The notes under the pieces are model-generated. The model saw nothing but the letters and a program-made list of their open reading frames with translations, made no database searches and had not been told where the DNA came from. Of a stretch of DNA of 64,000 nucleotides, positions 9,190-59,760 are shown one piece after another. Numbering within the stretch: the stretch's first letter is position 1; the number at the start of each line of letters is the position of its first letter. The DNA is from Candidatus Omnitrophota bacterium (GTDB taxonomy: Bacteria; Omnitrophota; Gorgyraeia; Zapsychrales; Zapsychraceae), in NCBI GenBank assembly GCA_015233195.1, contig JADFYE010000005.1, positions 12,122 through 76,121 of the forward strand, read 5' to 3'. The translations under genes and the position numbers were made by a program.

Positions 9190-9629
9190 TTTTTCACCTC
9201 TTCAGCCAGGCTTGCCGCCTTTTTTTTCTCTAAAATTCCCAATGCTTTTACTACCGCATCAATAAGTGCTTCTGGTCTTATTGGACACGAAGGAGCATAA
9301 ACATCAACTGGAACAACTTTATCTGCCCCGCCCAAAACATTATAACATTCCCTAAATACCCCGCCTGAAGTTGCGCATATACCAACTGCTATCACTACTT
9401 TAGGATTCGGCATCTGGTTATAAATATTTTGTACTACTGGTTTGTTTTGCTCATTTATCGACCCAGTCAATAAAAGTATATCCGCATGTTTTGGGTTACC
9501 CGTATTAATTACCCCAAAACGTTCTACGTCATACCTAGGCATCAAGGATGCTAAAACTTCAATATCACAGCCATTACAACTTGATCCATCATAATGAATT
9601 ATCCACGGTGATTTTGATAAAACACTCAT
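9186..9629 (-). CDS. echC: Group 4 [NiFe] hydrogenase small subunit (EchC, NuoB-like)
   Basis: Carries the proximal-cluster motifs CNGCD, GICATSGG and APSCPIRPE. Confidence 0.85.
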   Translation of the reverse strand: MSVLSKSPWIIHYDGSSCNGCDIEVLASLMPRYDVERFGVINTGNPKHADILLLTGSINEQNKPVVQNIYNQMPNPKVVIAVGICATSGGVFRECYNVLGGADKVVPVDVYAPSCPIRPEALIDAVVKALGILEKKKAASLAEEVKK

Positions 9630-9630
9630 A

Positions 9631-10500
9631 TTAACCCCTTATCATAAGATAAATAATATTCGCTCCGCCTAAAACTAAAGCCACTAACCAAGAACTTGCA
9701 ACCAAAGCTTGCCATCTTACTCTGGCAGTAGCATTATCAATTAACATTTGAGATAAAAATACTAACAATGACACGCTTAAACCCACCCAAACATTCGAAG
9801 CAAAAAATAAATAAACAATAGCTAAAACAAAAACATTTTCATACCAATGCGCCATTTCAATAATCGCTAAAGTCTTACCTGAAAACTCAGTAGTAATCCC
9901 TTTTACTAATTCTTGGTGAGCATGATGAGAAGTGGAAAGATCAAACGGAGATTTACGAAACTTAATTGGTAAAATAAAAAAGAAAGCTAGAAAAACGCCA
10001 GGCAAAACCATAATTAAAGATTTTGGATAATGAATTATATCTGTGATTTGAAAACTTTTAGTAACCATGTACATGCCAACTGCAACCATCATTAAAGCTG
10101 GTTCATATGACATCATTTGCAAAGCTTCCCTATGCGCGCCAATAACGCTATAAGGTGAACTGGCTTTAAAACCACCTAACACAAAAAATACTCCGGCTAA
10201 AGTTAATGCAAATATGATAAGTAAAAGATCTCCGCCTGCAAAAAATAATGCTCCAGTAAATACTGTCAGAACAAAAAAGAATTCTATATACAAAGTTTGT
10301 GAAGGACGCACCACCAAAGTTTCCTTTTTAAATAATTTAAGCACATCATAAAAAGGCTGTAATATCGGAGGTCCGATCCGATTCTGCATACGTGCTGTTA
10401 CTCTTCGATCCAGACCAGCTAATAACCCGCCTACGATTGGTGCTAAAACTAAATATGAAAGTAATATCTTAATTGACATATTACGCTCCCCCCAAAACAA
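9631..10500 (-). CDS. echB: Ech hydrogenase membrane subunit B (NuoH-like)
   Basis: 289 aa, polytopic and hydrophobic, in the operon position of EchB. Confidence 0.7.
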   Translation of the reverse strand: MFWGERNMSIKILLSYLVLAPIVGGLLAGLDRRVTARMQNRIGPPILQPFYDVLKLFKKETLVVRPSQTLYIEFFFVLTVFTGALFFAGGDLLLIIFALTLAGVFFVLGGFKASSPYSVIGAHREALQMMSYEPALMMVAVGMYMVTKSFQITDIIHYPKSLIMVLPGVFLAFFFILPIKFRKSPFDLSTSHHAHQELVKGITTEFSGKTLAIIEMAHWYENVFVLAIVYLFFASNVWVGLSVSLLVFLSQMLIDNATARVRWQALVASSWLVALVLGGANIIYLMIRG

Positions 10501-24285: not shown

Positions 24286-25470
24286 TTACGCAGCTTCTAG
24301 GCGGGCAAATATTGCAGTATCCATACTCTCCATGTCAATAACCGGAACAGGTCTGGATAAGAAATATCCTTGAACAGCATCAACTCCTAATTGTTTTACT
24401 GCTTCCAATTCTTCTTTCTTTTCAATCCCTTCAGCAATAGACAAAATTTTGTTCTCCTGACAAAAACGTACAATAAACCTTACAATACTCATTTTTATTG
24501 TGTCTTTATGAATATTAGTAACTATATGTCTATCAATCTTTAATACTTCTGGACGCGTTCTTACTATTGATTCCAAACTTGCATATCCGCTGCCTACATC
24601 ATCTACCGCAAATCTAAAACCATTCTGGCGATAAATAGCCAAATGCTCAAAAAAACGGTCGTCATTTGATATAGCGGAACGCTCAGTAATTTCCAATACC
24701 ACTTCATCTGGAGTTATACCTGAATCTTTAAATATCGAATTTACTTCAATAAAACGTGCATCTTCTACCCAAAATGGGTTACAATTCAAAAAAAGTTTTT
24801 TGCCCTTCAACTTCGAACTAGCACTTTTTACAGCTTTTTGCCAGGATAACAATTCCAGATCAGAATAAAAACCATATTGTATACCCCATTTAAATAATAT
24901 TTCAGGGTTAGAAAGTAAGCCTGTAACTTGTGGACGAGCTAAAGCTTCGAATCCATACACTTTTGAAGTTTTTAATAAAAATATCGGCTGAAATGCGGGT
25001 ATCATTAATTCATTATCAACTATATGCCTTAACTGTTTTATTATTGACTCACTTTGTACTGCAGGATCAGCTTCAGAATAACTGTGGGAACGCCGCATAA
25101 CTGATTCGATACGAGCTAAAAGTTCTTCAAATTTAAATGGCTTGGTAAGATAATCATCTGCTCCTGAATAAAGAGCATCAGTTATATCATTAGGAGCTGA
25201 TTTAGCACTTAATATTACAACCGGTAAAGTTTGTGTCTTTGCATCCGCTCTTATCTTTTTTAATACCTCTAATCCGTTTTCATCCGGAAGAATAATATCC
25301 ATTATTATAAGATCGGTTTTAGCTGGGGATATTTTTTCAAACATCTCTTCACTGGAATTAGCCACTGAAACATCATATTCCCTCGATACTAGCAGCATCT
25401 TAAGCATTGATGCAACGGCAATATTGTCATCAACAATTAGAATATGCCTTCTTGATCTCGGAATATTCAT
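24286..25470 (-). CDS. Response regulator receiver domain fused to an EAL domain (c-di-GMP phosphodiesterase)
   Basis: The receiver domain has HILIVDDN...DLIIMDIILPDENG...KP. The EAL domain has EALAR, the core EITE and DDVGSGYASL. The start was taken at MNIPRS. Confidence 0.8.
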   Translation of the reverse strand: MNIPRSRRHILIVDDNIAVASMLKMLLVSREYDVSVANSSEEMFEKISPAKTDLIIMDIILPDENGLEVLKKIRADAKTQTLPVVILSAKSAPNDITDALYSGADDYLTKPFKFEELLARIESVMRRSHSYSEADPAVQSESIIKQLRHIVDNELMIPAFQPIFLLKTSKVYGFEALARPQVTGLLSNPEILFKWGIQYGFYSDLELLSWQKAVKSASSKLKGKKLFLNCNPFWVEDARFIEVNSIFKDSGITPDEVVLEITERSAISNDDRFFEHLAIYRQNGFRFAVDDVGSGYASLESIVRTRPEVLKIDRHIVTNIHKDTIKMSIVRFIVRFCQENKILSIAEGIEKKEELEAVKQLGVDAVQGYFLSRPVPVIDMESMDTAIFARLEAA

Positions 25471-25711
25471 ATACACCTCAACATGTTTTTCTGTATTTAG
25501 TATAAAACATTATTGAAAGAATTAACAGCCAAATTTAAAGCTATTATTGATTTAATAGAAAAGTTGTTTTTATAAATCATTTATTTTCAATATGTTATAA
25601 AACTGGTCTTGCCTAAAGTAAGCGATTACTTATTTTCAAAAATCACCTACATACGACTAAAGCATTACTAATTCGAAAATATGGAAATGAAAGATAATAA
25701 GCATAAAAACA

Positions 25712-27951: not shown

Positions 27952-28971
27952 TTATATTAAAGATACCTTATTCTTTCCAGTTTTTTTAGCCTCATACATG
28001 CCCTTGTCAATCTTAGTGATCAGATCTTTAGCAGTTTCCACATCAGTATCTGGTCTGCCTCCTACCCCTATACTCAAAGTACAAAAAGGCATACGTATAG
28101 ATTCGTCATGCACCAGTTCAAAAAAAAGTTTCTGAATACGTTCAGCCGCAGTAATAGCATTTACTTTATTAGTTTCCGGTAAAATAACCATAAATTCATC
28201 TCCGCCATAACGCCCGACAATATCTACTTCACGTAAATGACTTTTTATTAATGCTGCGGTTTTTTTCAAAACTGCATCACCTTTTTGATGACCGTATTTA
28301 TCATTTACCTGCTTAAAATTATCCATATCGATCATCATACACGACAGATCCAAACGATAACGCTTTGCACGCGCAACCTCTTCTTCTAAACGATAACGAA
28401 TTGCAGAATGGTTCAAGACATTTGTCAATCCGTCAGTTTGAGCCAGTTGTTTCAAATGGCGCTCATAGCGTTTTTGAACCGATATATCCTGTAAAGTCAC
28501 AATTACTCTTTTCCAAGAATTCTTGTATACTTCAGGTACAGATACTTTAAGCCGCACATCATACAATCGTCCAGTCAGCGTCCGACTTTTAAATTCCGTT
28601 TCAAATGTATCGTTACCATTAAGTAATGCTGAAAACTCCTCAACCAAAGTGTTCAGAGCAGACTTATGCACCACTTTCCCCAAATTATCAATTAGTTGTG
28701 CTTTAGTTTTTGCGCCGTACAATTTAACTGCAGCCAAATTAACATCTACAATTTTTAATTTCCGAAAAGTATCTTTTACCAATTTAGGATGATCGAATAA
28801 ATATTTCCGGTAATCTTCAACCTTATATTTTTCTAAATAAGATTTAAGATTTGCTAACGCTGAAAAATCCTCTTCCCAAATCGCAATCGGTGAATAATCA
28901 AAAATTAACTTTAACCGGTCATAATCATAATTATCTTTTACAGTTGAAATCTTTTGTGAAGAGCTCGCCAT
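27952..28971 (-). CDS. PAS-domain diguanylate cyclase (GGDEF)
   Basis: An N-terminal PAS-like region is followed by the DGLTNVLNH, RYGGDEF and Y.AKK motifs. Confidence 0.8.
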   Translation of the reverse strand: MASSSQKISTVKDNYDYDRLKLIFDYSPIAIWEEDFSALANLKSYLEKYKVEDYRKYLFDHPKLVKDTFRKLKIVDVNLAAVKLYGAKTKAQLIDNLGKVVHKSALNTLVEEFSALLNGNDTFETEFKSRTLTGRLYDVRLKVSVPEVYKNSWKRVIVTLQDISVQKRYERHLKQLAQTDGLTNVLNHSAIRYRLEEEVARAKRYRLDLSCMMIDMDNFKQVNDKYGHQKGDAVLKKTAALIKSHLREVDIVGRYGGDEFMVILPETNKVNAITAAERIQKLFFELVHDESIRMPFCTLSIGVGGRPDTDVETAKDLITKIDKGMYEAKKTGKNKVSLI

Positions 28972-46096: not shown

Positions 46097-48118
46097 CTAA
46101 AAAATTACAGTTATAAGTAAACCAATAAAAATCAAAAACACTGCCCAATAAAATTTAATGTCATAAATATGACTTTTATATCGTTCTTCTTTTGTTCTGA
46201 TCTCGCAAGTTTCGATATATGGCACTGGGTCCCTTCGATACCAACCAAATATCTCAACATCCTGATCAATAAAATTCTTGGTCTTTAAGACTCCCCAACT
46301 ATTGCTAATTGCCAACGGACTTTCCCGATCCAAAAAAATCATACCAGTTTCATCTTTAAAAATAATATCATCCGTTAATATCGATACCGCACTTCCTCGT
46401 CCGATAATTTTTCCTTTAACCTGACAAGCTACTGGTCTAATTTCAGAAACTTTAATTTTTTTCAACAAAGCATGCACATTCATCGGAGCAAATTCACCCG
46501 AAGGATAAGCCATGAATAATTTTAAAAAATAACCTAAACCTAAAGCAGCGACCAGCATGCCTAACTGATGAAAACCTGAACGTTCCAACCCTAAAAATAC
46601 GACCAGCAAAGTTATTATAACAAAAACTACCGGCGCTAAATTTATAGACACTTCAAATAAAAAATTTACCCAAAATGATTCGGGTCGTTTTTCATCAAAT
46701 GTTACATAGGATTCCCTGCCTAAATATTCAGAAAAGTTATTTAACATGCTAATGCGTTTAGCCAACAATGGATGGGTTGATCTAACTTCGTAATATAGCG
46801 CCCACGGACTCCACATATCCCACTTTGCCGCATCTTTTATTGTATCACACGCAGGTTCATTGCCAGCCTCAATAACCATGCTCAAAGCTTGCTCCTCATC
46901 AAATATTCCAAAAGCCTTGATAGCCTTAAAACCATCTTGGCGCTCATTCTGTTCTTTAATGTTTACATTTTTTCCAGCTAAACTGTATCCAATTTTTACT
47001 AAAGCAGAACATAATTTTTCCGGATGCCCAGTAACTTCTCCTGAAAAACGATCCGCGTAATATTCCCTTACTCTCGAGAACCATACAAAGGTCATCTCAT
47101 GCATAATATAAAAAATGTATGCGATCCTCGATATAACATAGCGAGCGGCTTCATTGGGGATTTTTTCTGACCTGCGGCAAGTATGATATATGTAATTCCA
47201 AAATAATGGTAAAGGTTGAAATAATGTTATCAATAACATATCCCACCTGGATATATGCCCAATTTCATGCGCAGTAACCGCCCTAAGTTCTTCCTCGTCT
47301 AACAAATCCAACAAACCTTCAGAAACCACCAAACGACTGCTATTAGCATGATATCCATAAGTAAAAGACTGGGGAGCTCCGTCGGGTATTATCCCTATCA
47401 AAGGCATTGCAATATTTTTATCTTTACATGTTTCGCGTATAAAATTTACCAGTTTTGAATATTTATTTTCTAGAACTGAAAAATCCAGCCAATCCACCTG
47501 ATAAAATCCTTTTAACAATAAATCCATAAATATTGGTCCGGTTAAAAACAACGTGACCATTATCAAAACGCTGAGCATAGGCACTAAAAGTAACGGCAAT
47601 TTAAAACATAAAACCAATATCGATAAAACCAATGATATTAAAACATAATATCCAGCTACCCCTGCTACTGAACTTAAAATCAAATTCGGCAAAGGCAATA
47701 ATCCGATCCGTACATTTGGCATGTAAGAATCATAAGTAGTGCCGTCCAATTTTCCATCAAATGAAAATTCCTGATCAACATTAATTCTCAATCTATCGAT
47801 TGGGAACTTTTTTATCTCATCCCGGTCTAACCATATCCCGCCGCTATAAGGACAATAATCTATCACCACTTCACCATCAAACATGTTAAACTCAACCATA
47901 AGTTTATCTGAAACTGGAGATACGCGATTTGATGGGCGTTGTTTTAAAATCGCTTCATTAAATTTTTTCTCAATATAATTTGGAAACTTTGTGAAAAAAT
48001 AAATCTCGTCTTTGTCCAGCCAGATTCCTTCACACTGCGGGCAAAGATCTACTTCAACGCCTTGGCGAGTCAATACTGAACTCAAGTCCATATTTTCACA
48101 AACCGGACAGCGTTTCAT
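46097..48118 (-). CDS. Membrane M48-family metalloprotease (HtpX-like) with two N-terminal zinc-ribbon domains
   Basis: Two CPxC...CPQCEGIWLD / CPYSGGIWLD ribbons of the zf-TFIIB-like type are followed by multiple transmembrane segments and a HEIGH...E..AD M48 active site. Confidence 0.7.
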   Translation of the reverse strand: MKRCPVCENMDLSSVLTRQGVEVDLCPQCEGIWLDKDEIYFFTKFPNYIEKKFNEAILKQRPSNRVSPVSDKLMVEFNMFDGEVVIDYCPYSGGIWLDRDEIKKFPIDRLRINVDQEFSFDGKLDGTTYDSYMPNVRIGLLPLPNLILSSVAGVAGYYVLISLVLSILVLCFKLPLLLVPMLSVLIMVTLFLTGPIFMDLLLKGFYQVDWLDFSVLENKYSKLVNFIRETCKDKNIAMPLIGIIPDGAPQSFTYGYHANSSRLVVSEGLLDLLDEEELRAVTAHEIGHISRWDMLLITLFQPLPLFWNYIYHTCRRSEKIPNEAARYVISRIAYIFYIMHEMTFVWFSRVREYYADRFSGEVTGHPEKLCSALVKIGYSLAGKNVNIKEQNERQDGFKAIKAFGIFDEEQALSMVIEAGNEPACDTIKDAAKWDMWSPWALYYEVRSTHPLLAKRISMLNNFSEYLGRESYVTFDEKRPESFWVNFLFEVSINLAPVVFVIITLLVVFLGLERSGFHQLGMLVAALGLGYFLKLFMAYPSGEFAPMNVHALLKKIKVSEIRPVACQVKGKIIGRGSAVSILTDDIIFKDETGMIFLDRESPLAISNSWGVLKTKNFIDQDVEIFGWYRRDPVPYIETCEIRTKEERYKSHIYDIKFYWAVFLIFIGLLITVIF

Positions 48119-48849
48119 TTATTATTCTCCAAGCATGAACTTTCACAATATTTTTTAAACTCCATAACTGCACTGATAGCGCCTAAAGCGCCATTGATCT
48201 TTAAAGGTATACGTTTTTTATCATCACTAAACCAGAAACCAAAATTTTTCGGGTCACCGCTCATAAATACAGCCTTATAGCGTTGTTTATTTATTTTTAT
48301 GTTATTAATTTTGGATATTATAAATTTTACTTCTTTCGTCGGCAACTCTGAATTTATTTTAGCGCCTAATTCAGCATTCCCATTCATTCTAAACCTATAT
48401 ATGATCCCATACACGTTATCTATCGGACCATTCTTTTTAATTTCTAATTTATCCGTCGCATCTTTACTCAAATCAATAATCTCAACTTTACGCTGGTCTT
48501 GAAAATAAGTTTCTTCAATTTTTTGTTTATTACCAAATATATTCAAATCGCGGAAATTTTTAAGCGGATAAAACGTCTGTGGATCAAAATACAAATTCTC
48601 TTCGTCATAAAACCCGGTAGCTTTTGCCCTAAAAACAATATGTTGCGCCTGCTTACCGTTTATTTCAGTCAAGCCTTTATATTCTAAAGCTGCTTCGCCA
48701 ATAGTAATCTTTAATTTTTTTATATCAAAAATTATGGTCTCTCCTACGGTAAAAGGCAGGGGCTGCGATACTGCAGTTTGCGCGGACGCATAACCCGCAC
48801 TAAAAATTGAAACACAACTAAAAATTAACAACACATATCGTAAAATCAT
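48115..48849 (-). CDS. Secreted hypothetical protein (DUF3108-like beta-rich protein)
   Basis: Has a signal peptide. Its stop overlaps the M48 protease start. Confidence 0.45.
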   Translation of the reverse strand: MILRYVLLIFSCVSIFSAGYASAQTAVSQPLPFTVGETIIFDIKKLKITIGEAALEYKGLTEINGKQAQHIVFRAKATGFYDEENLYFDPQTFYPLKNFRDLNIFGNKQKIEETYFQDQRKVEIIDLSKDATDKLEIKKNGPIDNVYGIIYRFRMNGNAELGAKINSELPTKEVKFIISKINNIKINKQRYKAVFMSGDPKNFGFWFSDDKKRIPLKINGALGAISAVMEFKKYCESSCLENNK

Positions 48850-49985
48850 ATCCTGTCGTATTCTTTCACAAATCCTTCTAATAGTTTAGTGCCTTTTATT
48901 AAAGTCGAGATGTTCAAATATTCGTCAGTCGTATGCGCTGTACCTTTTGCTCCCACACCTGTAGCAAAAGCCGGAATCTTATGTTTCCGAAAAAATGATA
49001 TAACAGTAGCGCCTTCACTTCCTTTTAATATGACAGGGATTTTCTCTTTTTGGGCTGACCTGACATAAGCTTTCACAAATGGATGTTCTTTACTAATCTC
49101 ATACGGTCTTTGATGATCATCAATTATAAATTCAAATTTTTTAGTTTCTGATCCAATTACTTTCTTAATTTGATTTATGACATCTTCACCAACCATACCC
49201 GGCAAATAACGTATATCGACTGAAAATTCACAAAAATCAGCCACCATATTAACTTTATCCCCGCCTTTAATCGTCCCGATATTAATAGTCGGTTCGCGTA
49301 AAAACTGGTGCTTCACATATGGCAATTTTAATGCTTTTAATTTTGCTATCACCAGAGCGGCAATCTCAATTGCGTTCACTCCCAGCCAATTATACGCACC
49401 ATGCGCTTTTTTACCAAAAATCTGCACCCTGCAGTGTATCAAACCTTTTTGGGCTATGACTGCGTGATTGTCGTCTGAATCAAGCACCAAAGCCAATCCG
49501 GGTTTTAAAACTTTTTTATCTACCAAAGGTAATATACCAGCTTTACTTCCAGTCTCCTCGTCTACAGTTGCAGCCATGACAACATCTTTACGCAACTTTA
49601 CTCCATCCTCGACTAGACTGCGCATGATCTCCATTGAAGCAGCTAAATTTCCTTTGTCATCTGACGATCCACGACCATAAATTTTATTACCTACAACCTG
49701 TCCTAATGGATTATATTTCCAGCCAGTACCGATCGGCACAGTATCAAAATGCGGGGTCAAAAGAATTGATTGTTTTTGCGCTTGCGCCCGAGGTAAAGAA
49801 CCCTTTAAAGTAGCGATTATATTTGGTCGGTTCTTAGCATAAGTCACCAGTTTCACTTCCAGACCTAAAGACCGCATATCGTTCTCGATAAACTTAGCTA
49901 AAGCTAACTCATTACCTGGAGGATTTTCCGAATTAAAAGATAAAACTTTTTTAGTTAAAGCAATCAAGCGTAGTTTATTTATCAC
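48846..49985 (-). CDS. M20-family metallopeptidase/deacylase (ArgE/DapE-like)
   Basis: GRGSSDDKGNLAASMEIM and other M20 motifs. The probable start is GTG at 49983-49985, with AGGAG 6 nt upstream and an 8-nt overlap with the upstream stop. It was chosen over the ORF-track ATG at 50069, which overlaps the upstream gene by 95 nt. Confidence 0.7.
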   Translation of the reverse strand: MINKLRLIALTKKVLSFNSENPPGNELALAKFIENDMRSLGLEVKLVTYAKNRPNIIATLKGSLPRAQAQKQSILLTPHFDTVPIGTGWKYNPLGQVVGNKIYGRGSSDDKGNLAASMEIMRSLVEDGVKLRKDVVMAATVDEETGSKAGILPLVDKKVLKPGLALVLDSDDNHAVIAQKGLIHCRVQIFGKKAHGAYNWLGVNAIEIAALVIAKLKALKLPYVKHQFLREPTINIGTIKGGDKVNMVADFCEFSVDIRYLPGMVGEDVINQIKKVIGSETKKFEFIIDDHQRPYEISKEHPFVKAYVRSAQKEKIPVILKGSEGATVISFFRKHKIPAFATGVGAKGTAHTTDEYLNISTLIKGTKLLEGFVKEYDRI

Positions 49986-50289
49986 CGAACAACTCCTGAG
50001 CTTTGGAAGCCCCGATGTGCCGCTTATAATCATCGTGGTCAATAATTTGCAGACTGGGACGCTGTTCAACGATTTTATGCAATTTAGGCATGTTAGTTAT
50101 CACGTTGCGGAATGCTATATATTTAAATTCGGCTTTGCAATGCGGGCATTGATGCATATCCAACTTAACGTTCAATTCGCTGCAGTTAGCACATTGAGCA
50201 GCTAAGTCACCATAGATCATCAAATGAGCTTTGACCTCTTGAATATCATACTTCTTATAGGTTCGAATTAAACCCTGATTATGCGACAT
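49975..50289 (-). CDS. Hypothetical protein with a putative zinc ribbon (CxxC...CxxC)
   Basis: 104 aa containing CANC...CPHC. Confidence 0.45.
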   Translation of the reverse strand: MSHNQGLIRTYKKYDIQEVKAHLMIYGDLAAQCANCSELNVKLDMHQCPHCKAEFKYIAFRNVITNMPKLHKIVEQRPSLQIIDHDDYKRHIGASKAQELFGDK

Positions 50290-50488
50290 AGTTTATATCT
50301 CGACTAATATGTTCCCATAAAAAAGTGTATTGCAAACAAGGCAGCCTTCTAAAATGTTATATTCAAGAAAAGGCTGGGGTTCAAGCCGCATTTCAATTTA
50401 TATTGCAAGATGCGGGTTAAATGCTGACTCATGTTTGCGATTATAACACAGCAGACTATTTGTAGAGCAGAAAAAAATTAAATATATT

Positions 50489-50764
50489 CTACATCTTTTT
50501 ATACGCGCATCTGCGGTCGCCGGGCCAGAATTCATTCAAAATATCCCGTATCGGCACACAGGTAAATTTCCTGCCATTTATAGTTTTATGCGGACCAAAT
50601 CGATTAGCATAATCAGAGCAAAAAAACTTTCCATATTTTCCTGCTCTTAAATTCTCACACGGATCACCTTCTGCTTTACCACAGCATGCTCCGCAATTTT
50701 TACAAATTGCCTCCCACTCTTCAGCTTGTTTTTTCTGTAAAGCGTAATAATTGTGCTCGTCCAT
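50489..50764 (-). CDS. Cys-rich small protein, YkgJ/UPF0153-like putative Fe-S or zinc-binding protein
   Basis: 91 aa with the CKNCGACCG...C...C...C...C pattern. Confidence 0.5.
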   Translation of the reverse strand: MDEHNYYALQKKQAEEWEAICKNCGACCGKAEGDPCENLRAGKYGKFFCSDYANRFGPHKTINGRKFTCVPIRDILNEFWPGDRRCAYKKM

Positions 50765-50772
50765 ATTCTGAT

Positions 50773-51825
50773 TTATTTTTTCCTAATATATTCCGCAACT
50801 TCATAAATCAATTTTTCTGAATCTTCCCAGCCTAAACATGGATCAGTAATCGATTGCCCATAAACATTTTTTCCGACAGGCTTTGCGCCTTCAACCAAAT
50901 AACTTTCTATCATTAACCCGCGAACCATATCTTTTAAGACCAGAGATTCCATACGGCTCCACATTACCTCATGCGTAATACGGATCTGCTGTTTGAACTG
51001 TTTATTAGAATTAGAATGGTTGGTATCCACAATTATAGAAGGATTCGGATAGCCGCGTTCTTTGTATAACTCCGCGACTCTAATCATATCCTCAAAATGA
51101 TAATTAGGTATCGACCTGCCTGCTAAATCAACTGCACCCCTTAAAATACAATGAGTAAGCGGATTACCTGAAGTTTTAACTTCAAATCCGTTATAAATAT
51201 ATACATGCGGCAACAATGCGGCATGAACCGCATTCATCATTACAGTTATATCGCCGCTGGTTGGATTTTTCATGCCTACTGGAACATCAAATCCACTTGA
51301 AGTAAGACGATGGTTCTGATTTTCAACTGAGCGCGCGCCAACTGCAACATAACTCAAAAGATCAGCTAAATATGGATAATTACTTGGATAAAGCATTTCA
51401 TCAGCTGCTGATAATCCAGTTTCTTCAAGCACACGAATATGCATGCGACGAATAGCTTTTATACCCTCAACAATATTAGGATCTTCAGTTGGATCAGGTT
51501 GATGTGCCATGCCTTTATAACCTTCCCCTGTTGTGCGGGGTTTATTAGTATAAATCCGCGGCACAAGCACCACCGCATCCCTAACCTTTTCCTGAACCTT
51601 AGCCAAACGATTTACATATTCACATACAGAATTTTCATCATCTGCAGAACATGGTCCAATAATCAAAAGAAATTTATTATCCACTCTAGTAAATACATTC
51701 TGGATAGCCCGATCCCGTTTAGCTTTCAAAGCTTTAAGCTGTAAACTCATAGGTATTTCCCGAATAATCTCCTCAGGAGATGGTATTTTACGAATATATT
51801 GAAAACTCATAATTAATCCTTTCAA
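50773..51825 (-). CDS. 3-deoxy-7-phosphoheptulonate (DAHP) synthase, class I (AroG/F/H type)
   Basis: LLIIGPCSADDE...KPRT and other class I alpha motifs in 350 aa. The start may be the internal Met at 51810. Confidence 0.8.
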   Translation of the reverse strand: MKGLIMSFQYIRKIPSPEEIIREIPMSLQLKALKAKRDRAIQNVFTRVDNKFLLIIGPCSADDENSVCEYVNRLAKVQEKVRDAVVLVPRIYTNKPRTTGEGYKGMAHQPDPTEDPNIVEGIKAIRRMHIRVLEETGLSAADEMLYPSNYPYLADLLSYVAVGARSVENQNHRLTSSGFDVPVGMKNPTSGDITVMMNAVHAALLPHVYIYNGFEVKTSGNPLTHCILRGAVDLAGRSIPNYHFEDMIRVAELYKERGYPNPSIIVDTNHSNSNKQFKQQIRITHEVMWSRMESLVLKDMVRGLMIESYLVEGAKPVGKNVYGQSITDPCLGWEDSEKLIYEVAEYIRKK

Positions 51826-51914
51826 AAATATCTTTATTTGTCCGTCTTACTTTTGCTATTTTATAAGGTTTGAAACATTTGGCAAGTATTAAAATTTTGA
51901 ATAAAAATAAAAAA

Positions 51915-52184
51915 GCCGATAAAGCAAGGAGCCTACACAGGAGACTCACATGGCGACGGTTCCGCATCACAAGTATGCTTTCAACATCGCAGGAAACAAC
52001 CGGGCGGTCATTCCCTCACTTCGGCAACTCAGCCACCATATTGTCTATTAACCTAACCATTCTTAATCTACGTGCCTCGGGCGATCCAGTCGCCTCCGCC
52101 AGGCCTCTTCGGTCCTTGACAACTTAGGTCTGAAGTTTTGCGTCCCCGGATTTCCCCGGGTTTGCCTTTATCGGCTAAGTAAAA
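51915..52184 (-). ncRNA. GC-rich structured RNA of about 270 nt with terminal long-range helix and U-run terminator, containing a c-di-GMP-I aptamer-like 5' domain
   Basis: The minus-strand transcript starts GCCGAUAAAG and ends CUUUAUCGGC-UUUUUUAUUUUU. The two ends form a perfect 10-bp helix. The region is clearly GC-richer than its flanks. No ORF on the minus strand exceeds 14 aa. Confidence 0.55.
52085..52178 (-). promoter_or_regulatory. c-di-GMP-I (GEMM) riboswitch aptamer-like element
   Basis: The minus-strand RNA reads GGCAAACC-CGGGGAAAUCCGGGG-ACGCAAAAC-UUCAGACCUAAGUUGUCAAGGACCGAAG-AGGCCU. This matches the GEMM-I core (GCAAACC, a GAAA tetraloop hairpin, GGACGCAAAGC, then a CCUAAG-type tetraloop-receptor hairpin) and closely parallels the Vibrio cholerae Vc2 aptamer. 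Confidence 0.6.
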
Positions 52185-52238
52185 TATACCATACCGAATA
52201 AACAAAACAAGACCAAAATAATACCGTCAAGATAACGT

Positions 52239-52862
52239 TTACTTCCGCTTAGACGCTATAAGTCCGGCAATCTTGTCACCCCAAATATCCAAAATAAGAC
52301 CTAAAGATTTTTGATCCAAATCATTATTAAATGGATCAGCATACATTTTTAAAGCTAAAGGCTGCACATCTGACATTGATAAAATGATCTGCTTAGTTGA
52401 CGCATCTCTAACCTCAACTTCTATAATCAAGTCTGAAGGGTCATAAACTTGATTGGAATTAGCATTTATCATCCGCATTAAAGCGCGCTGCGGCTGTGAT
52501 CTAAAAGAACCTTTTAATGCAATATTTACTATCAAAGCTTTTGATTTATCTTTAAACATTTTTTCATCTTCAACTACGTCCATCATAGCTAATTTTAATT
52601 TTGCGCTTATATGATGATTTACTACCTGCGCCACTAATTCAAATACTTCTGGTCGGAGCGTATCTTTTTCAAAATCATTAGTTTCATCATTCTGAGTCGA
52701 GATCTCTATACCTCTAAGGTCAATCATTGCTACAGAAATTTCCTTATATGATGCCAAATTCACATCCGAGTTTTTACAATCCGCTTTAAAATTATCAGCG
52801 TGAACTAAAGGAGCATACAATAGCGCAAACACAATAAAAAAATATCGAATCCATATATTCAT
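52239..52862 (-). CDS. Secreted hypothetical protein
   Basis: Signal peptide (IWIRYFFIVFALLYAPLVHA). The start was taken at MNIWIRY to avoid an overlap with trpF. Confidence 0.5.
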   Translation of the reverse strand: MNIWIRYFFIVFALLYAPLVHADNFKADCKNSDVNLASYKEISVAMIDLRGIEISTQNDETNDFEKDTLRPEVFELVAQVVNHHISAKLKLAMMDVVEDEKMFKDKSKALIVNIALKGSFRSQPQRALMRMINANSNQVYDPSDLIIEVEVRDASTKQIILSMSDVQPLALKMYADPFNNDLDQKSLGLILDIWGDKIAGLIASKRK

Positions 52863-52869
52863 AATGCCT

Positions 52870-53511
52870 CTATTTCTCGTCGATTTCACTTTGACTTGGA
52901 GAACGAAAATTCAAAACATCAAAAAATGCTCGGATCTTACGCGCGTCTTTTATACCAGGAGATTTTTCAAGACTGCTGGACACGTCGATTGCGTAAGGAT
53001 TTACAGCTTCAACAGCTTGGCGCACATTCTCTACAGTTATACCTCCGGATAATATTATCGGCTTATCAAACTTCTGCCCTTTTAACATTTCCCAATTGAA
53101 TGCTGTGCCAGTACCGCCTTCAATCCCTTCCTTAAAAGTATCAAATAGGTAAGCATCAACCATATATTCTTTTATCTGACCAAAATCAAATTGAGGAGCA
53201 ATCTTAAACGCTTTTATAATCTTACAATCTTTAAACCTTTTGCAATATTGAGCAGTTTCTTTACCATGAAATTGTACAGTCTTGATACGAGTAAAATTAC
53301 AAACTTCACGCACAGCTCTTTCACTCAAATCAACAAAAACACCGACTGGTGTTATAAAAGGCGGTAAAGCTTCGATCAATTTGCGCGCCTTACTTGGACT
53401 TATGTAACGCGGACTTTTTTTATGAAATATGAATCCAACTGCCCATGCGCCGTAATACGCAGCCTTTTGCGCGTCCTCGTGATTAGTGATACCACAAACT
53501 TTTACTCGCAT
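52870..53511 (-). CDS. trpF: Phosphoribosylanthranilate isomerase
   Basis: MRVKVCGIT...AVGFIF...FLDT-like motifs in 213 aa. Confidence 0.8.
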   Translation of the reverse strand: MRVKVCGITNHEDAQKAAYYGAWAVGFIFHKKSPRYISPSKARKLIEALPPFITPVGVFVDLSERAVREVCNFTRIKTVQFHGKETAQYCKRFKDCKIIKAFKIAPQFDFGQIKEYMVDAYLFDTFKEGIEGGTGTAFNWEMLKGQKFDKPIILSGGITVENVRQAVEAVNPYAIDVSSSLEKSPGIKDARKIRAFFDVLNFRSPSQSEIDEK

Positions 53512-53529
53512 ATGATTCCTTTTGTATAG

Positions 53530-54306
53530 TTAAAATAATTCTTTAATTTTCGCCCCAATATCGTCCGAACGCATAAAGACTTCTCCCATTAATACTGCAT
53601 GAGCCCCTGCCTGTTTAACCCTTAAAATATCTTCTCTGGTCTTAAGTCCACTTTCTGCAACAATAACCTTATCTTTTGGTATCAACGGTATGAGTTTTTC
53701 ACATACAGCTAAATCAACATTAAAAGTTTTAAGATCGCGATTATTAATACCAATGATTTCTGCTCCGCATTTCAAGGCGCGATTCAACTCCGCCTCGTCG
53801 TGTACTTCAACCAAACAATCCAAGTCTAATTGAGATGCCACAGTTATAAAATTTTTTATTTGAATATCAGTCAAAATAGCGACGATCAAAAGAACAGCGC
53901 TAGCACCCAAATATTGCGTTTCGTAGATCTGCCCTTCATCTATAATAAAATCTTTTCGCAAGATTGGCATTTTAAACTGATCTGCCACTTGTCGCATGTA
54001 AGCAGGTTTACCTAAAAAATATTTTTCTTCAGTCAATATAGAAAACGCTGCCGCGCCATTGTTAGCATATGCTTCAGCAATTTTTAACACATCAAATTTT
54101 TCTCTAATTAGCCCTAAAGACGGTGAAGCTTTTTTTATTTCTGCAATTAAATTAATTTTACCAGGCTGAGAAATTTGTTTTTTAAATATTGAATACCGCT
54201 TATATTCAGCCAGATCTATTCGCGCTTTTATACGAGCGTAAAATTCTTTACTGCGCGCAACTTCAAATTTCTTATATTCAACAATATCTTTTAAGAAATC
54301 ATTCAT
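53530..54306 (-). CDS. trpC: Indole-3-glycerol phosphate synthase
   Basis: IAEIKKASPS...ILTEEKYF...GINNRDL...ESG. The start was taken at MNDFLKDIVEYKK. Confidence 0.8.
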   Translation of the reverse strand: MNDFLKDIVEYKKFEVARSKEFYARIKARIDLAEYKRYSIFKKQISQPGKINLIAEIKKASPSLGLIREKFDVLKIAEAYANNGAAAFSILTEEKYFLGKPAYMRQVADQFKMPILRKDFIIDEGQIYETQYLGASAVLLIVAILTDIQIKNFITVASQLDLDCLVEVHDEAELNRALKCGAEIIGINNRDLKTFNVDLAVCEKLIPLIPKDKVIVAESGLKTREDILRVKQAGAHAVLMGEVFMRSDDIGAKIKELF

Positions 54307-55574
54307 TATTTCTCTTTCTCTCTCCACACCTTTGCTCCAACCTTCAACAATTTATCTTCTAAATCTTCATATCCACGTTCCAAATGATAAATACGATGTA
54401 TTTCGGTCGTACCTTTTGCCATTAAACCAGCTATAAGCAAAGCCGCTGAAGCGCGTAAGTCAGACGCCATTACCGGAGCGCCATGTAATTTTTTAACACC
54501 CTGCACGATCGCGGCAGTCCCTTCTCGACGAATATCCGCGCCCATCCGATTCATTTCCGCGATATGAATAAACCGATCTGGATAAACCTTATCTGAAATA
54601 ATACTAACCCCTTCAATGGTTGCCATAAAAGCCATGAACTGAGCTTGCAGATCCGTCGGAAAACCTGGATATGGATACGTAGTAACACTTACCGGCTTAA
54701 ATTTTTTACTGGTACTTACTTTTATATCACCATTTTTTTCAGCATAAACTTTTACACCTGCCTGGTTCAGACGATCTACCAAAGCAAATAAATGTTTTAA
54801 GTTTGCATTTTTAATGGTCAGATCACTCCTGGTAGCTGCAGCTAATAAAATATACGTGCCAGCCTCAATGCGGTCAGGTATGATCTCATACGTAATGCCT
54901 TTTAATTTTTTTACACCCTTTATCTTAAGACGAGGACTGCCTTTACCTTCAATATTTGCGCCCATCTCAATGAGAAATTCAGTAAGATCCTCAATTTCAG
55001 GTTCGCAAGCAGCAAATTCAATTACAGTTTCACCTTCAGCTAAAACCGCAGCCATCAATACATTCGCAGTCGCTAAAACTGAAGAACCAAATACTCCGCC
55101 TAAAAATATTTCATTACCAATTAATTTTGGAGCCGTAGCCAAAACATAACCGCCGTCTACTGATATTTTCGCGCCCAACGCTTCCACACCTTTAATATGT
55201 AAATCTACTGGACGAATACCAATAACACATCCACCAGGTAAAGAAACTTTGGCTTTTTTTAATTTCCCTAATAATGGGCCAAGCACGCAAAATGATCCAC
55301 GCATCGTCGAAACTAAATCATAATCCGCTATATATCCGGCTTTCTTACCAGCCTTTACAGTCAAAGTATTATCTTTATAATCAACTTCCTTACCCAATGA
55401 CTGAAGTAATTTAATCATGGTGCGCGTATCCCGTAAATTCGGGACTCGTTTCAACACTACCGTGTCGTCGGTCAAAAGTGTTGCAGCCATGATCGGCAGA
55501 CTCGAATTTTTTGAACCGCTGATATTTACATCACCTTTAAGTGATGCCCCCCCTTTTAACATTAAAACATCCAT
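54306..55574 (-). CDS. murA: UDP-N-acetylglucosamine 1-carboxyvinyltransferase
   Basis: LKGDVNISGSKNSSLPIMAATLL...GGCVIGIRPVDLHIKGVEALGA carries the MurA catalytic Cys loop. 422 aa. Confidence 0.85.
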   Translation of the reverse strand: MDVLMLKGGASLKGDVNISGSKNSSLPIMAATLLTDDTVVLKRVPNLRDTRTMIKLLQSLGKEVDYKDNTLTVKAGKKAGYIADYDLVSTMRGSFCVLGPLLGKLKKAKVSLPGGCVIGIRPVDLHIKGVEALGAKISVDGGYVLATAPKLIGNEIFLGGVFGSSVLATANVLMAAVLAEGETVIEFAACEPEIEDLTEFLIEMGANIEGKGSPRLKIKGVKKLKGITYEIIPDRIEAGTYILLAAATRSDLTIKNANLKHLFALVDRLNQAGVKVYAEKNGDIKVSTSKKFKPVSVTTYPYPGFPTDLQAQFMAFMATIEGVSIISDKVYPDRFIHIAEMNRMGADIRREGTAAIVQGVKKLHGAPVMASDLRASAALLIAGLMAKGTTEIHRIYHLERGYEDLEDKLLKVGAKVWREKEK

Positions 55575-57784: not shown

Positions 57785-59113
57785 TTATTCTCTACTAAGA
57801 TTCGCCAAGAAATCAGCGTTGGTTTTGTATTTACTTAGACGATCAATTAACAATTCCATTGCTTCTGCGGAATTCAGATCATTCATGGCTTTACGCAATA
57901 ACCATGCGCGTTGCAAATCAGCATCCGGCATAAGTTTCTCTTCATGACGAGTATTAGAGCGTTTAATGTCAATTGCAGGATAAATACGACGCTGGAATAA
58001 ATTGCGATCTAATTGTAATTCCATGTTACCCGTACCTTTGAACTCTTCAAAAATAACTTCATCCATACGGCTTCCAGTATCGACTAAGGCTGTAGCGATA
58101 ACCGTTAAACTTCCGCCTTCTTCCAGAGCCCGGGCAGCACCAAAAAAGCGTTTCGGACGATGTAAAGCATTAGCGTCCACACCACCGCTTAATATCTTGC
58201 CGCTATGCGGAACTACCGTGTTATAAGCGCGTGCTAAACGAGTAATACTGTCGAGGAGAATTACAACATCCCGTTTATGTTCAACCAAACGTTTAGCTTT
58301 TTCTAAAACAATTTCCGCGACTTGGACGTGACGATCTGCAGGTTCATCAAAGGTTGAAGCAATTACTTCACCTTTTACACTGCGCTGCATATCAGTAACT
58401 TCTTCCGGACGCTCGTCGATAAGAAGCACCATTAAATGTATTTCCGGATGATTGGTGGTCATGGCATTCGCGATCTTTTGCAATAAAACAGTTTTACCGC
58501 TGTATGGAGGAGCAACTATCAAAGCCCGCTGTCCTTTTCCAACCGGAATCAATAAATCAATTACTCTGGTCGAAACTTCTTTTTGATCATTTTCCAGCTT
58601 AATCCGTTCAAACGGATACAGCGGAGTTAAGTTATCAAAAAATATTTTATCTTTGCAGTCTTCAGGATTCTCAAAATTAACTGCTTCGACTTTAAGTAAA
58701 GCAAAATATTTTTCACCTTCTTTAGGCGGACGGATATGCCCGCTGACTGTATCACCAGTCTTAAGATCAAACCTGCGGATTTGCGACGGAGAAACATAAA
58801 TATCATCCGGACATGGCAGATAATTATAATTCATGCTTCTTAAAAAACCAAAACCTTCAGGCAAGATTTCCAAAGTGCCTTCACCGAACATCATGCCGGC
58901 TTTTTCAGCCTGGGCTTGAAGCACCTTGAATATCAAATCCTGTTTACGGATGCCGCTAACGCCATTTAATCCCAAGCCGCGCGCGAATTCCGTTAACTCC
59001 GACATTTTCATATTTTTGAGTTTAGTAATATCCATTTGATTAGCACCGTCCGGGATAATATCTTTCTCCCGAGCCGGACGCTCCGGTCTTTCTCTGACAG
59101 GTCTTTCAGCCAT
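57785..59113 (-). CDS. rho: Transcription termination factor Rho
   Basis: Has an N-terminal RNA-binding domain, a Walker A motif ([12 protein letters not shown]) and a RecA-like core. The start was taken at MAERPVRER (ATG 59111-59113), which has AGAGGGAG upstream. The longer ORF-track start at 59191 would overlap coaE by 34 nt. Confidence 0.85.
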
Positions 59114-59157
59114 GCTATTTTCTCCCTCTTTCGATGGTTTTTTATTCTCGTCTTTAA

Positions 59158-59760
59158 CTACACGCTTAACTCTGGTTGTATCTTTTTCCATAATTTTTCT
59201 ACTTGTACTCTCAATTGGTTTAATGTTTTATTATTATCTATTTGAACGTCTGCTCGACGGATTTTTTCCATTAACGGCATTTGAGCTGCTATTCGATTTT
59301 TCGCTTCGAGTTCGGAAAGTCCTAAATTTTTTCCAGAACGTTTGATCTGTTCATTAACCTTTGCGGTAACCACCACAACCAGATCACAAACCTTATCCAA
59401 CTTAGCTTCAAATAAAAGCGGCACATCCAGCACGATAACGCTATTTGTTTTATTTGCAGCTTTAAGCACTGCTCTTATTTCTTGATCCACTACTGGATGA
59501 ACTATTTTTTCCAAAGCCTTTAATTTTTTAGGATCAACGAAAACTATTTTCGCTAATTTTTTACGATCTATACTTCCTGCACTTAATATGCCTTTGCCAA
59601 ATAATTTAACCACTCCTGAAAAACTTTTACCATTCTTAGACAAAGAACGCCGCGCTATCTGGTCAGCATTAAGGTTAATACCTTTAGCTTTATGCGCCAA
59701 CATCGAAGCTACTGTAGATTTTCCAGTACTTAGACTACCTGTGATACCGATAACAAACAT
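59158..59760 (-). CDS. coaE: Dephospho-CoA kinase
   Basis: [17 protein letters not shown] is a P-loop at the N-terminus. 200 aa. Confidence 0.8.

Follow-up and report, generated by a model that had tools for sequence, protein, structure and literature searches.

Riboswitches that sense cyclic di-GMP (c-di-GMP) are known to control genes for motility, adhesion, pili and signalling. Here we analyse a c-di-GMP aptamer that lies instead beside a gene of aromatic amino-acid biosynthesis, in a stretch of 64,000 nucleotides from a Candidatus Omnitrophota bacterium (GenBank assembly GCA_015233195.1, contig JADFYE010000005.1, positions 12,122 to 76,121 of the forward strand; hereafter the window). The aptamer is part of a discrete RNA element of about 270 nt on the minus strand, whose ends are complementary and whose 3' end is a U-run, as a preliminary description of this DNA had claimed and as the sequence bears out. 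We present evidence that the 5' tail of the aptamer can enter two pairings, one in the ligand-bound fold and one in a putative terminator helix, and we weigh the reading that the element may be a transcriptional riboswitch against its alternatives.

The first gene downstream of the RNA on the same strand encodes a DAHP synthase of the aroG type (50773..51810, minus strand; start codon ATG at 51810; PF00793, E = 6.5e-47), separated from the putative terminator helix by 104 nt. Upstream lies an open reading frame (ORF) of 216 aa with a stop codon at 52239; it matches no Pfam family, and its N-terminus is hydrophobic and signal-like. The GC-rich island of the preliminary description is real, the RNA region having a GC content of 49-52% and its flanks one of 31-39%, and so is the adjacent DAHP synthase gene. 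Pfam likewise confirms the GGDEF gene (27955-28971, minus strand) and the gene for a response regulator with an EAL domain (REC-EAL; 24289-25476, minus strand) that it had placed in the window; these c-di-GMP turnover genes are encoded about 25 kb from the candidate riboswitch. The features of the element are collected in Table 1.

Table 1. Features of the RNA element and of the DNA directly around it, in window coordinates
Feature	Position	Strand	Basis or comment
Promoter-like site of the RNA: TTGTTT, 16 nt, TATATT	52183..52210	-	Read from sequence; -10 ends 6 nt before A52176; promoter function putative
c-di-GMP-I aptamer	52020..52176	-	RF01051, complete; helices covary across 8 homologues
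P0 5' strand GCCGAUAAAG	52166..52175	-	Model positions 2-11; equivalents of Vc2 G11 to G20 (P1 5' strand, J1/2, G20)
P1a hairpin CCCGGG-GAAA-UCCGGG, GNRA tetraloop	52145..52160	-	Compensatory changes in 3 of 6 pairs
P1b 5' strand, CCUAAG half of 11-nt tetraloop receptor	52118..52137	-	Rfam alignment and covariation
Structured insertion, distal P1b loop	52046..52117	-	73 nt unaligned in Rfam; holds GGCGA-CUGGA-UCGCC
P1b 3' strand, UAUGG half of receptor	52026..52045	-	Rfam alignment and covariation
Aptamer 3' tail GCCGAAGU	52018..52025	-	C92 equivalent at 52024; candidate 3' strand of short local P1
Linker hairpin H1	51991..52016	-	Against L082: one compensatory pair, two one-sided changes
Linker hairpin H2, GCGAUG...CGUCGC, inner GCAU/AUGC	51953..51990	-	Inner G-C to A-U against L082
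Linker hairpin H3, GAGUCU-CCUGUGU-AGGCUC	51929..51947	-	Nearly invariant between window and L082
P0 3' strand CUUUAUCGGC	51915..51924	-	Kept in 10 homologues; one A>G, leaving a U.G pair
U-run U6AU5AUU	51900..51914	-	Directly after P0; P0 and U-run resemble an intrinsic terminator (T1)
Promoter-like site between RNA and DAHP synthase gene: TTGCCA, 16 nt, TAAAAT	51858..51885	-	10 of 12 consensus matches

Identification of a complete class I c-di-GMP aptamer

A scan of the whole window with Rfam gave a single hit, RF01051 (c-di-GMP-I), which matches 52176..52020 on the minus strand over model positions 1-87 of 87 with 72.1 bits, twice the gathering score of 35 (E = 3.5e-12). When both strands of 51750-52350 were scanned permissively (E <= 10), nothing credible besides RF01051 was obtained, and the models for 6S RNA, RNase P, tmRNA, SRP RNA and the c-di-GMP-II aptamer, which the preliminary description had named as negative controls beside its predicted RF01051 match, were all silent. 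The motifs that it quoted are found on the minus strand at the positions it gave. Following GCCGAUAAAG are GGCAAACC, the P1a hairpin and GACGCAAAAC, and CCUAAG is also present; the GAAA loop and the 11-nt receptor CCUAAG...UAUGG were read from the sequence and the Rfam alignment, and their docking is predicted. The same alignment places the UAUGG half of the receptor, the P1b 3' strand and the C92-bearing tail UGCCGAA at 52045-52018, and it assigns the ligand-contact equivalents as G20 at 52166, A47 in the A-run after GACGC, and C92 at 52024. Tetraloop, receptor, contact residues and model match together identify the element, on sequence grounds, as a complete class I c-di-GMP aptamer. A G rather than an A at position 20 presumably favours c-di-GMP and disfavours cyclic GMP-AMP (cGAMP).

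The extent of the aptamer had to be revised. Rather than spanning about 90 nt and ending near 52100, it is 157 nt long owing to a 73-nt insertion in P1b. Of the roughly 170 nt of extra sequence that had been assigned to the region beyond it, 73 nt therefore belong to this insertion and about 93 nt are truly extra-aptamer. Both of the helices singled out there are present, GGCGA-CUGGA-UCGCC within the P1b insertion (52117-52046) and GCGAUG...CGUCGC as a hairpin of the extra-aptamer stretch (H2, 51990-51953). Compared with the RNA of a sister genome described below (L082), the insertion shows one compensatory pair, GCCU/AGGC to GCCC/GGGC; alignment of its interior across homologues with MAFFT and RNAalifold gave no family-wide consensus fold. 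Folding of the full RNA gives modest z-scores (-1.7 and -2.3), and energy alone was not taken as evidence. A hidden ORF is ruled out by indels of 1, 2, 2 and 1 nt relative to L082, which break every reading frame.

Related RNAs in Omnitrophota

The sister genome (GCA_015233115.1; L082) carries the RNA at L082:9454-9713, between trpF and a DAHP synthase gene, with a score of 72.3 bits against RF01051. The two RNAs are 90% identical, and their intergenic flanks are unalignable. In the combined structure all 80 pairs are kept; P1a, the P1b insertion, H1 and H2 each contain one pair in which both partners differ between the genomes. Further homologues were sought by three routes. A metagenome scan with a pattern that joined both halves of the receptor through a long gap in P1b to the tail of the aptamer, with the 5' tail, P0 and linker left free, yielded three more aptamers (L084, L086 and L087); the other three of its six hits (L083, L085 and L088) matched no Rfam model and were regarded as chance occurrences. 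A synteny search through the loci of a conserved Zn-ribbon gene, which lies downstream of the RNA in L084, L086 and L087, added L093, L099, L102 and L103, and no aptamer was found within 4 kb at L089-L092, L095-L098 and L101, with L090 and L098 judged by the gene layout common to the scanned loci. Finally, 80 DAHP synthase loci (identity <=68%) were scanned in species-representative genomes; a first regular expression found no aptamer and a family-specific one found a single case, L006, in the Omnitrophota isolate OFTM38, where the RNA is immediately upstream of the DAHP synthase gene. The RNA was not found at the DAHP synthase locus of another Omnitrophota genome, L008. One RNA among 80 such loci indicates that the association is not general to this DAHP synthase clade.

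These searches bring the total to 10 distinct sequences, the window and nine others, and every homologue with a named organism is from Omnitrophota; as judged from the sequences recovered, the subfamily is so far found only in this phylum. All 10 start with AGCCGAUAAAGG, and all 10 hold CUUU(A/G)UCGGC followed by a U-rich run, which is weakest in L103. The aptamer helices covary: across 8 homologues, both partners have changed in 8 pairs and pairing holds in 99.6% of cells, a value as high as which was reached in none of 500 shuffles, while slid controls gave 29-46%. A P1b insertion of 58-83 nt is present in all seven sequences detected by RF01051. L006 and L102 have further insertions around P1a and score under the RF01051 gathering threshold. 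In L006 (3606-3920), about 130 extra nt stand between P1a and the GAC(A)AAA junction, and the invariant 5' tail, P0 and U-run are kept. In L102 (2753-2933), the GNRA hairpin P1a is replaced by a larger branched insert, the tail reads UGCUGA, and there is a weak 29-bit match to the c-di-GMP-I-GGC variant model.

Wherever the RNA occurs, it is placed within clusters of trp and aro (aromatic amino-acid) genes and upstream of a gene on its own strand. Most often trpD-C-F and a PolB-exonuclease-like gene come before the RNA, and the Zn-ribbon gene, an M20 peptidase gene, DUF3108 and trpB-A come after it, in that order. In three genomes (window, L082 and L006) a module of aroG and a gene for a Cys-rich protein directly follows the RNA, and the surroundings of this module differ.

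The 5' tail of the aptamer is shared with a putative terminator helix

The preliminary description had noted that the 10 nt at one end of the element are complementary to the 10 nt before a U6 run at the other, and this helix, which we call P0, is indeed there. It is a 10-bp stem (duplex energy -13.7 kcal/mol) that runs directly into U6AU5, a combination of stem and U-run that qualifies as a predicted intrinsic terminator (T1). Because T1 encloses a "loop" of about 240 nt in the window, a standard terminator scan leaves it unlisted.

What distinguishes P0 is the identity of its 5' strand. Residues were mapped onto the Vc2 aptamer from the Rfam alignment and a published description (PMC11705072): the pairs that the model forms between GC at positions 12-13 and GC at 36-37 are the counterparts of Vc2 G21-C46 and C22-G45, so that, counting back, positions 5-11 would correspond to G14 to G20. 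In Vc2, P1 consists of G14-C93, C13-G94, A12-U96 and G11-C97, and G20 contacts one ligand guanine while C92 pairs with the other (PMC11705072). The P0 5' strand thus holds P1, J1/2 and pocket residues, and P0 and the ligand-bound fold should exclude each other. For this reason the likening of P0 to the closing helix of 6S RNA or RNase P was misleading: its 5' strand is the aptamer's own P1 and J1/2 segment, including G20, and competes with ligand binding. Nor can P0 be the ordinary P1 of the aptamer, since 14-100 nt separate the C92-bearing tail from the P0 3' strand and six of the P0 pairs draw on junction residues. A short local P1, bulged at the position of Vc2 A95, can instead form between the conserved tail CCGAAG(U/C) and GCCG; in the window this candidate helix would join the tail to 52172-52175 through G-C, C-G, an AA bulge, C-G and G.U. 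Tail position 98' is U or C across homologues, and either pairs with G2.

Covariation, which had been suggested as a check on the terminal helix, is absent from it, P0 being invariant in the 10 homologues. Residues that serve two mutually exclusive pairings should have little freedom to change, and the invariance of the P0 strands amid covariation elsewhere fits this expectation. We compared the arrangement with 67 class I aptamers selected by pattern from viral contigs, a biased sample that gives an indication and not a census. A helix of at least 7 bp with a U-run for the 10-nt tail was found in 19% of these, and in 14% when the tails were shuffled; a 10-bp tail helix with a U-run was found in none of the 67 and in all 10 members of the Omnitrophota family.

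A lineage-specific linker between the aptamer and P0

The extra-aptamer stretch (52016..51929, about 93 nt) folds into three hairpins, H1-H3. H2 and H3 are restricted to the window and L082, and H1 is not present in L084, L086, L087, L093, L099, L103, L102 or L006. The linker, measured from the aptamer tail to the P0 3' strand, spans 6 nt in L084 and L086, holds one small hairpin in L087, L093, L099 and L006, and reaches about 93 nt in the window and L082 only. Missing in 8 of 10 homologues, this 3' domain is, by sequence comparison, a lineage-specific linker rather than a core feature of the family. A second aptamer or ribozyme within it is ruled out by the same distribution and by the empty Rfam result at E <= 10.

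Promoter-like sites and second terminators

Most of the 10 sequences carry a sigma-70-like promoter directly upstream of the RNA, with TTGnnn, a spacer of 16-18 nt and usually TGnTATATT, mostly an extended -10 (TGCTATATT), ending 6-7 nt before AGCCG and hence before A1. Given this spacing, the 5' end of the RNA would coincide with the first residue of the helix. The site in the window scored under the threshold of a consensus scan. The second promoter-like site of Table 1, TTGCCA-16-TAAAAT, occurs also in L082, at another distance from the RNA.

A second canonical terminator (T2) stands 10-90 nt past the U-run in five of the 10 sequences (L084, L086, L093, L099 and L103), and weaker ones were recognised by eye in L102 and L087. 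The three loci in which a second terminator is missing are exactly those linked to aroG, namely the window, L082 and L006.

A candidate ON-type riboswitch and its alternatives

P0 is present, at pair probabilities near 1, in the unconstrained minimum-energy fold of all nine sequences folded. Until the 3' strand has been transcribed, a 3-bp hairpin is the only predicted hold on the tail; folding predicted neither an alternative partner for the P0 3' strand nor an anti-terminator. If P0 is the default of ligand-free folds and its 3' strand has no other partner, the ligand can only reduce termination, and the switch would be of the ON type. Invariant P0 strands, covarying helices elsewhere and a linker ranging from 6 to 93 nt form the pattern expected of a sequence under two alternative pairings. 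On these predictions, we consider it about an even chance that the element at the window locus is a transcriptional ON-type class I c-di-GMP riboswitch, an attenuator upstream of the DAHP synthase gene.

In the mechanism that we propose, transcription would start at about 52176 from the RNA's own promoter, and the first 11 nt, AGCCGAUAAAG, would be required for the ligand-bound fold, to which they contribute the P1 5' strand, J1/2 and the G20 equivalent. Without c-di-GMP the tail would be free, and on emergence of CUUUAUCGGC from the polymerase the two strands would pair as P0, which, closing around the whole aptamer and followed by the U-run, would terminate transcription at about 51907. With c-di-GMP the tail would be locked in P1 and the pocket, P0 would come too late, and the polymerase would read through into the DAHP synthase gene and those following it. 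The three-hairpin linker of 93 nt most plausibly extends the time available for ligand binding before this decision point. A role in cis at the window locus is suggested by the RNA-aroG module, which is kept together in differing neighbourhoods, and by the lack of T2 in the aroG-linked loci.

Several observations weigh against this reading. P0 shows no covariation, so that its pairing is backed by conservation alone; the local P1 that would compete with it has only 4 bp and a 2-nt bulge, with a mismatch in L099 (94' = A); and a terminator stem around 160-240 nt is atypical. The ligand-bound secondary structure is predicted to be 14-26 kcal/mol less stable than the P0 fold, and the switch would therefore have to be kinetic, decided during transcription of the linker. 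The second terminators, where present, would mask read-through. In the window, L082, L084, L087, L093 and L103, moreover, the stretch from the RNA to the next gene contains promoter-like sites, and the downstream genes may not depend on read-through at all.

A second explanation, which we regard as possible but clearly less probable, is that the element is a stand-alone small RNA that senses c-di-GMP, transcribed from a promoter of its own, ended by one or more terminators of its own and without a role in cis. In such an RNA, c-di-GMP would toggle between a closed form, with P0 formed and the ends paired, and an open form, altering stability, the 3' end (T1 or T2) or the sequence exposed; alternatively, the RNA would buffer c-di-GMP, as has been proposed for the merRNA of Bdellovibrio. 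The conserved promoter-like site, which sets the 5' end exactly at P0, would suit an independent transcript, as would the succession of T1 and a second terminator in five to seven of the 10 homologues, and the promoter-like sites, some of them leaderless-looking, directly before the downstream gene point the same way. In L099 two other genes intervene between the RNA and its usual neighbour, and the RNAs of the window and L082 have stayed 90% identical between flanks that cannot be aligned. Precedents exist in merRNA (PMC3627812), Bc1 (PMC11218506) and the small RNAs stabilised by Vc2 (10.1101/617340). However, a sponge would have no use for a helix in which G20 and J1/2 are buried, the RNA is always upstream of a same-strand gene in trp/aro clusters, the aroG-linked loci lack T2, and the spacer between T1 and T2 is unconserved in length and sequence, with no effector region evident. 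The preliminary description had offered two functions, that of a stand-alone RNA and that of a riboswitch acting on the DAHP synthase gene through an atypical platform, and these are the two that survive.

It is improbable, in our judgement, that the element serves the operon upstream of it, with P0 and the U-run simply ending and stabilising the transcripts of trpC-trpF and the 216-aa gene and the aptamer modulating the stability of that 3' end, as at Vc2 (10.1101/617340). The interval from the stop codon of the 216-aa ORF to the RNA contains no terminator, and in several loci the RNA comes after trpF or the exonuclease-like gene; yet the promoter-like site is conserved directly before the RNA in most loci, and the gene upstream of it in L006 and L102 has the opposite orientation. 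Least probable, and very much so, is an OFF switch in which compaction of the aptamer by the ligand would place the 5' tail next to the distal strand and so favour P0 and termination: in most class I members the ligand stabilises a P1 that joins the ends, and the outer four P0 pairs (GCCG/CGGC) could in principle stand in for it, but the six inner pairs use the equivalents of Vc2 C15 to G20, which are needed free for the pocket, P0 is the default in every ligand-free prediction with no anti-terminator predicted, and the conserved tail CCGAAG(U/C) suits a local P1 with a bulge at the A95 position.

Comparison with known riboswitches and significance

The Omnitrophota RNAs share with Vc2, the type example from Vibrio cholerae, and other GEMM-I (RF01051) members the full-length model match, the GAAA tetraloop in P1a, the CCUAAG/UAUGG receptor, G20, A47 and C92, a short P1 with a bulge at the A95 position and, in the window, accompanying GGDEF and EAL genes. 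They differ in the structured P1b insertion that every RF01051-detected homologue carries, in a putative terminator whose 5' strand is the aptamer's own 5' tail and which encloses the whole aptamer, and in a context of aromatic amino-acid biosynthesis rather than motility, adhesion or signalling. The two-state ON logic proposed for the window RNA, with a default terminator, is that of the pbuE adenine riboswitch, in which a ligand-stabilised P1 sequesters one terminator strand in a kinetic decision; pbuE, however, shares the 3' side of P1 with a terminator that is a local hairpin, whereas the Omnitrophota RNA would share the 5' side together with pocket residues.

Bc1, from the Bacillus cereus group, combines a class I aptamer with tandem terminators, of which c-di-GMP unfolds T1 while an intact T2 masks the effect (PMC11218506). 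The five Omnitrophota homologues with T2 have this two-terminator layout, but in Bc1 both terminators are hairpins that form locally within an extended platform, unlike the long-range T1 helix formed with the aptamer 5' tail, and the window has no T2. The merRNA of Bdellovibrio bacteriovorus is a non-coding RNA of a few hundred nt that contains a c-di-GMP-I aptamer and is proposed not to regulate a downstream gene; it is massively expressed, has no conserved downstream ORF and is not found outside Bdellovibrio (PMC3627812). The two have in common an aptamer of the same class inside a discrete RNA of a few hundred nt; there is no sequence relation beyond aptamer class, and the Omnitrophota RNA is followed by conserved genes on its own strand, aroG in three loci and the Zn-ribbon gene in six. 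That class I aptamers can reside in non-coding RNAs is also documented by the small RNAs that end in Vc2 (10.1101/617340).

Taken over the whole family, the most far-reaching proposal is a tentative one, which we hold with somewhat less than even confidence: Omnitrophota would possess a conserved c-di-GMP-responsive RNA on a previously undescribed platform, a closing or terminator helix drawn from the pocket-forming 5' tail, which would gate aromatic amino-acid genes in trp/aro clusters, in the window that for DAHP synthase, and in the relatives with two terminators would instead act as a stand-alone small RNA with closed and open forms. We found no paper that links c-di-GMP riboswitches to RNA elements of Omnitrophota or to DAHP synthase. 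If the proposal is true, either outcome would be the first link of a c-di-GMP riboswitch with core amino-acid biosynthesis, and the presence of such RNAs within the trp and DAHP synthase clusters of an uncultivated phylum would extend the c-di-GMP regulon to core metabolism. The platform would be unusually economical, a single 10-nt tail serving as ligand pocket and as half of a terminator, and the natural variation of the linker from 6 to 93 nt would offer a series for studying the length of the decision window in a kinetic riboswitch. The two-terminator variants bear on a question raised by merRNA and Bc1, namely the purpose of riboswitches that are unable to regulate a downstream gene.

Neighbouring genes and further observations

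The Omnitrophota gene neighbourhood spans 48115-55574 (minus strand) in the window and recurs in L084, L087, L093 and L103. Its PolB-exonuclease-like gene belongs to PF10108, its 100-aa Zn-ribbon gene overlaps the M20 peptidase gene, and a small membrane protein gene precedes DUF3108. The 100-aa Zn-ribbon protein is homologous to the window ORF at 49975-50289 and has 131 homologues, nearly all from Omnitrophota, with no Pfam assignment above cutoff. At L087:2960-2985 and L093:3980-4003 the start codon ATG of the Zn-ribbon gene follows the end of an extended -10 (TGGTATAAT) by 7-10 nt, which suggests a leaderless mRNA. A relative of the 216-aa upstream protein is located in an unrelated locus, where the RNA was not found.

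A box, AAGTAAACGYTATCTT, at 52223-52238 (minus strand) in the window and at L082:9376-9391 is conserved about 50-60 nt upstream of the RNA start amid DNA that is not; the window copy overlaps the stop codon of the 216-aa ORF. The flanks of the L082 RNA (9240-9380 and 9740-9990) contain short direct repeats (gtcagaagtcagacgtcagaag and ggtcacaa-type units) that are not in the window. Finally, the Rho ORF of the window (57785-59191, minus strand) encodes 468 aa and that of the sister genome 417 aa, possibly reflecting an N-terminal extension or another start-codon call.

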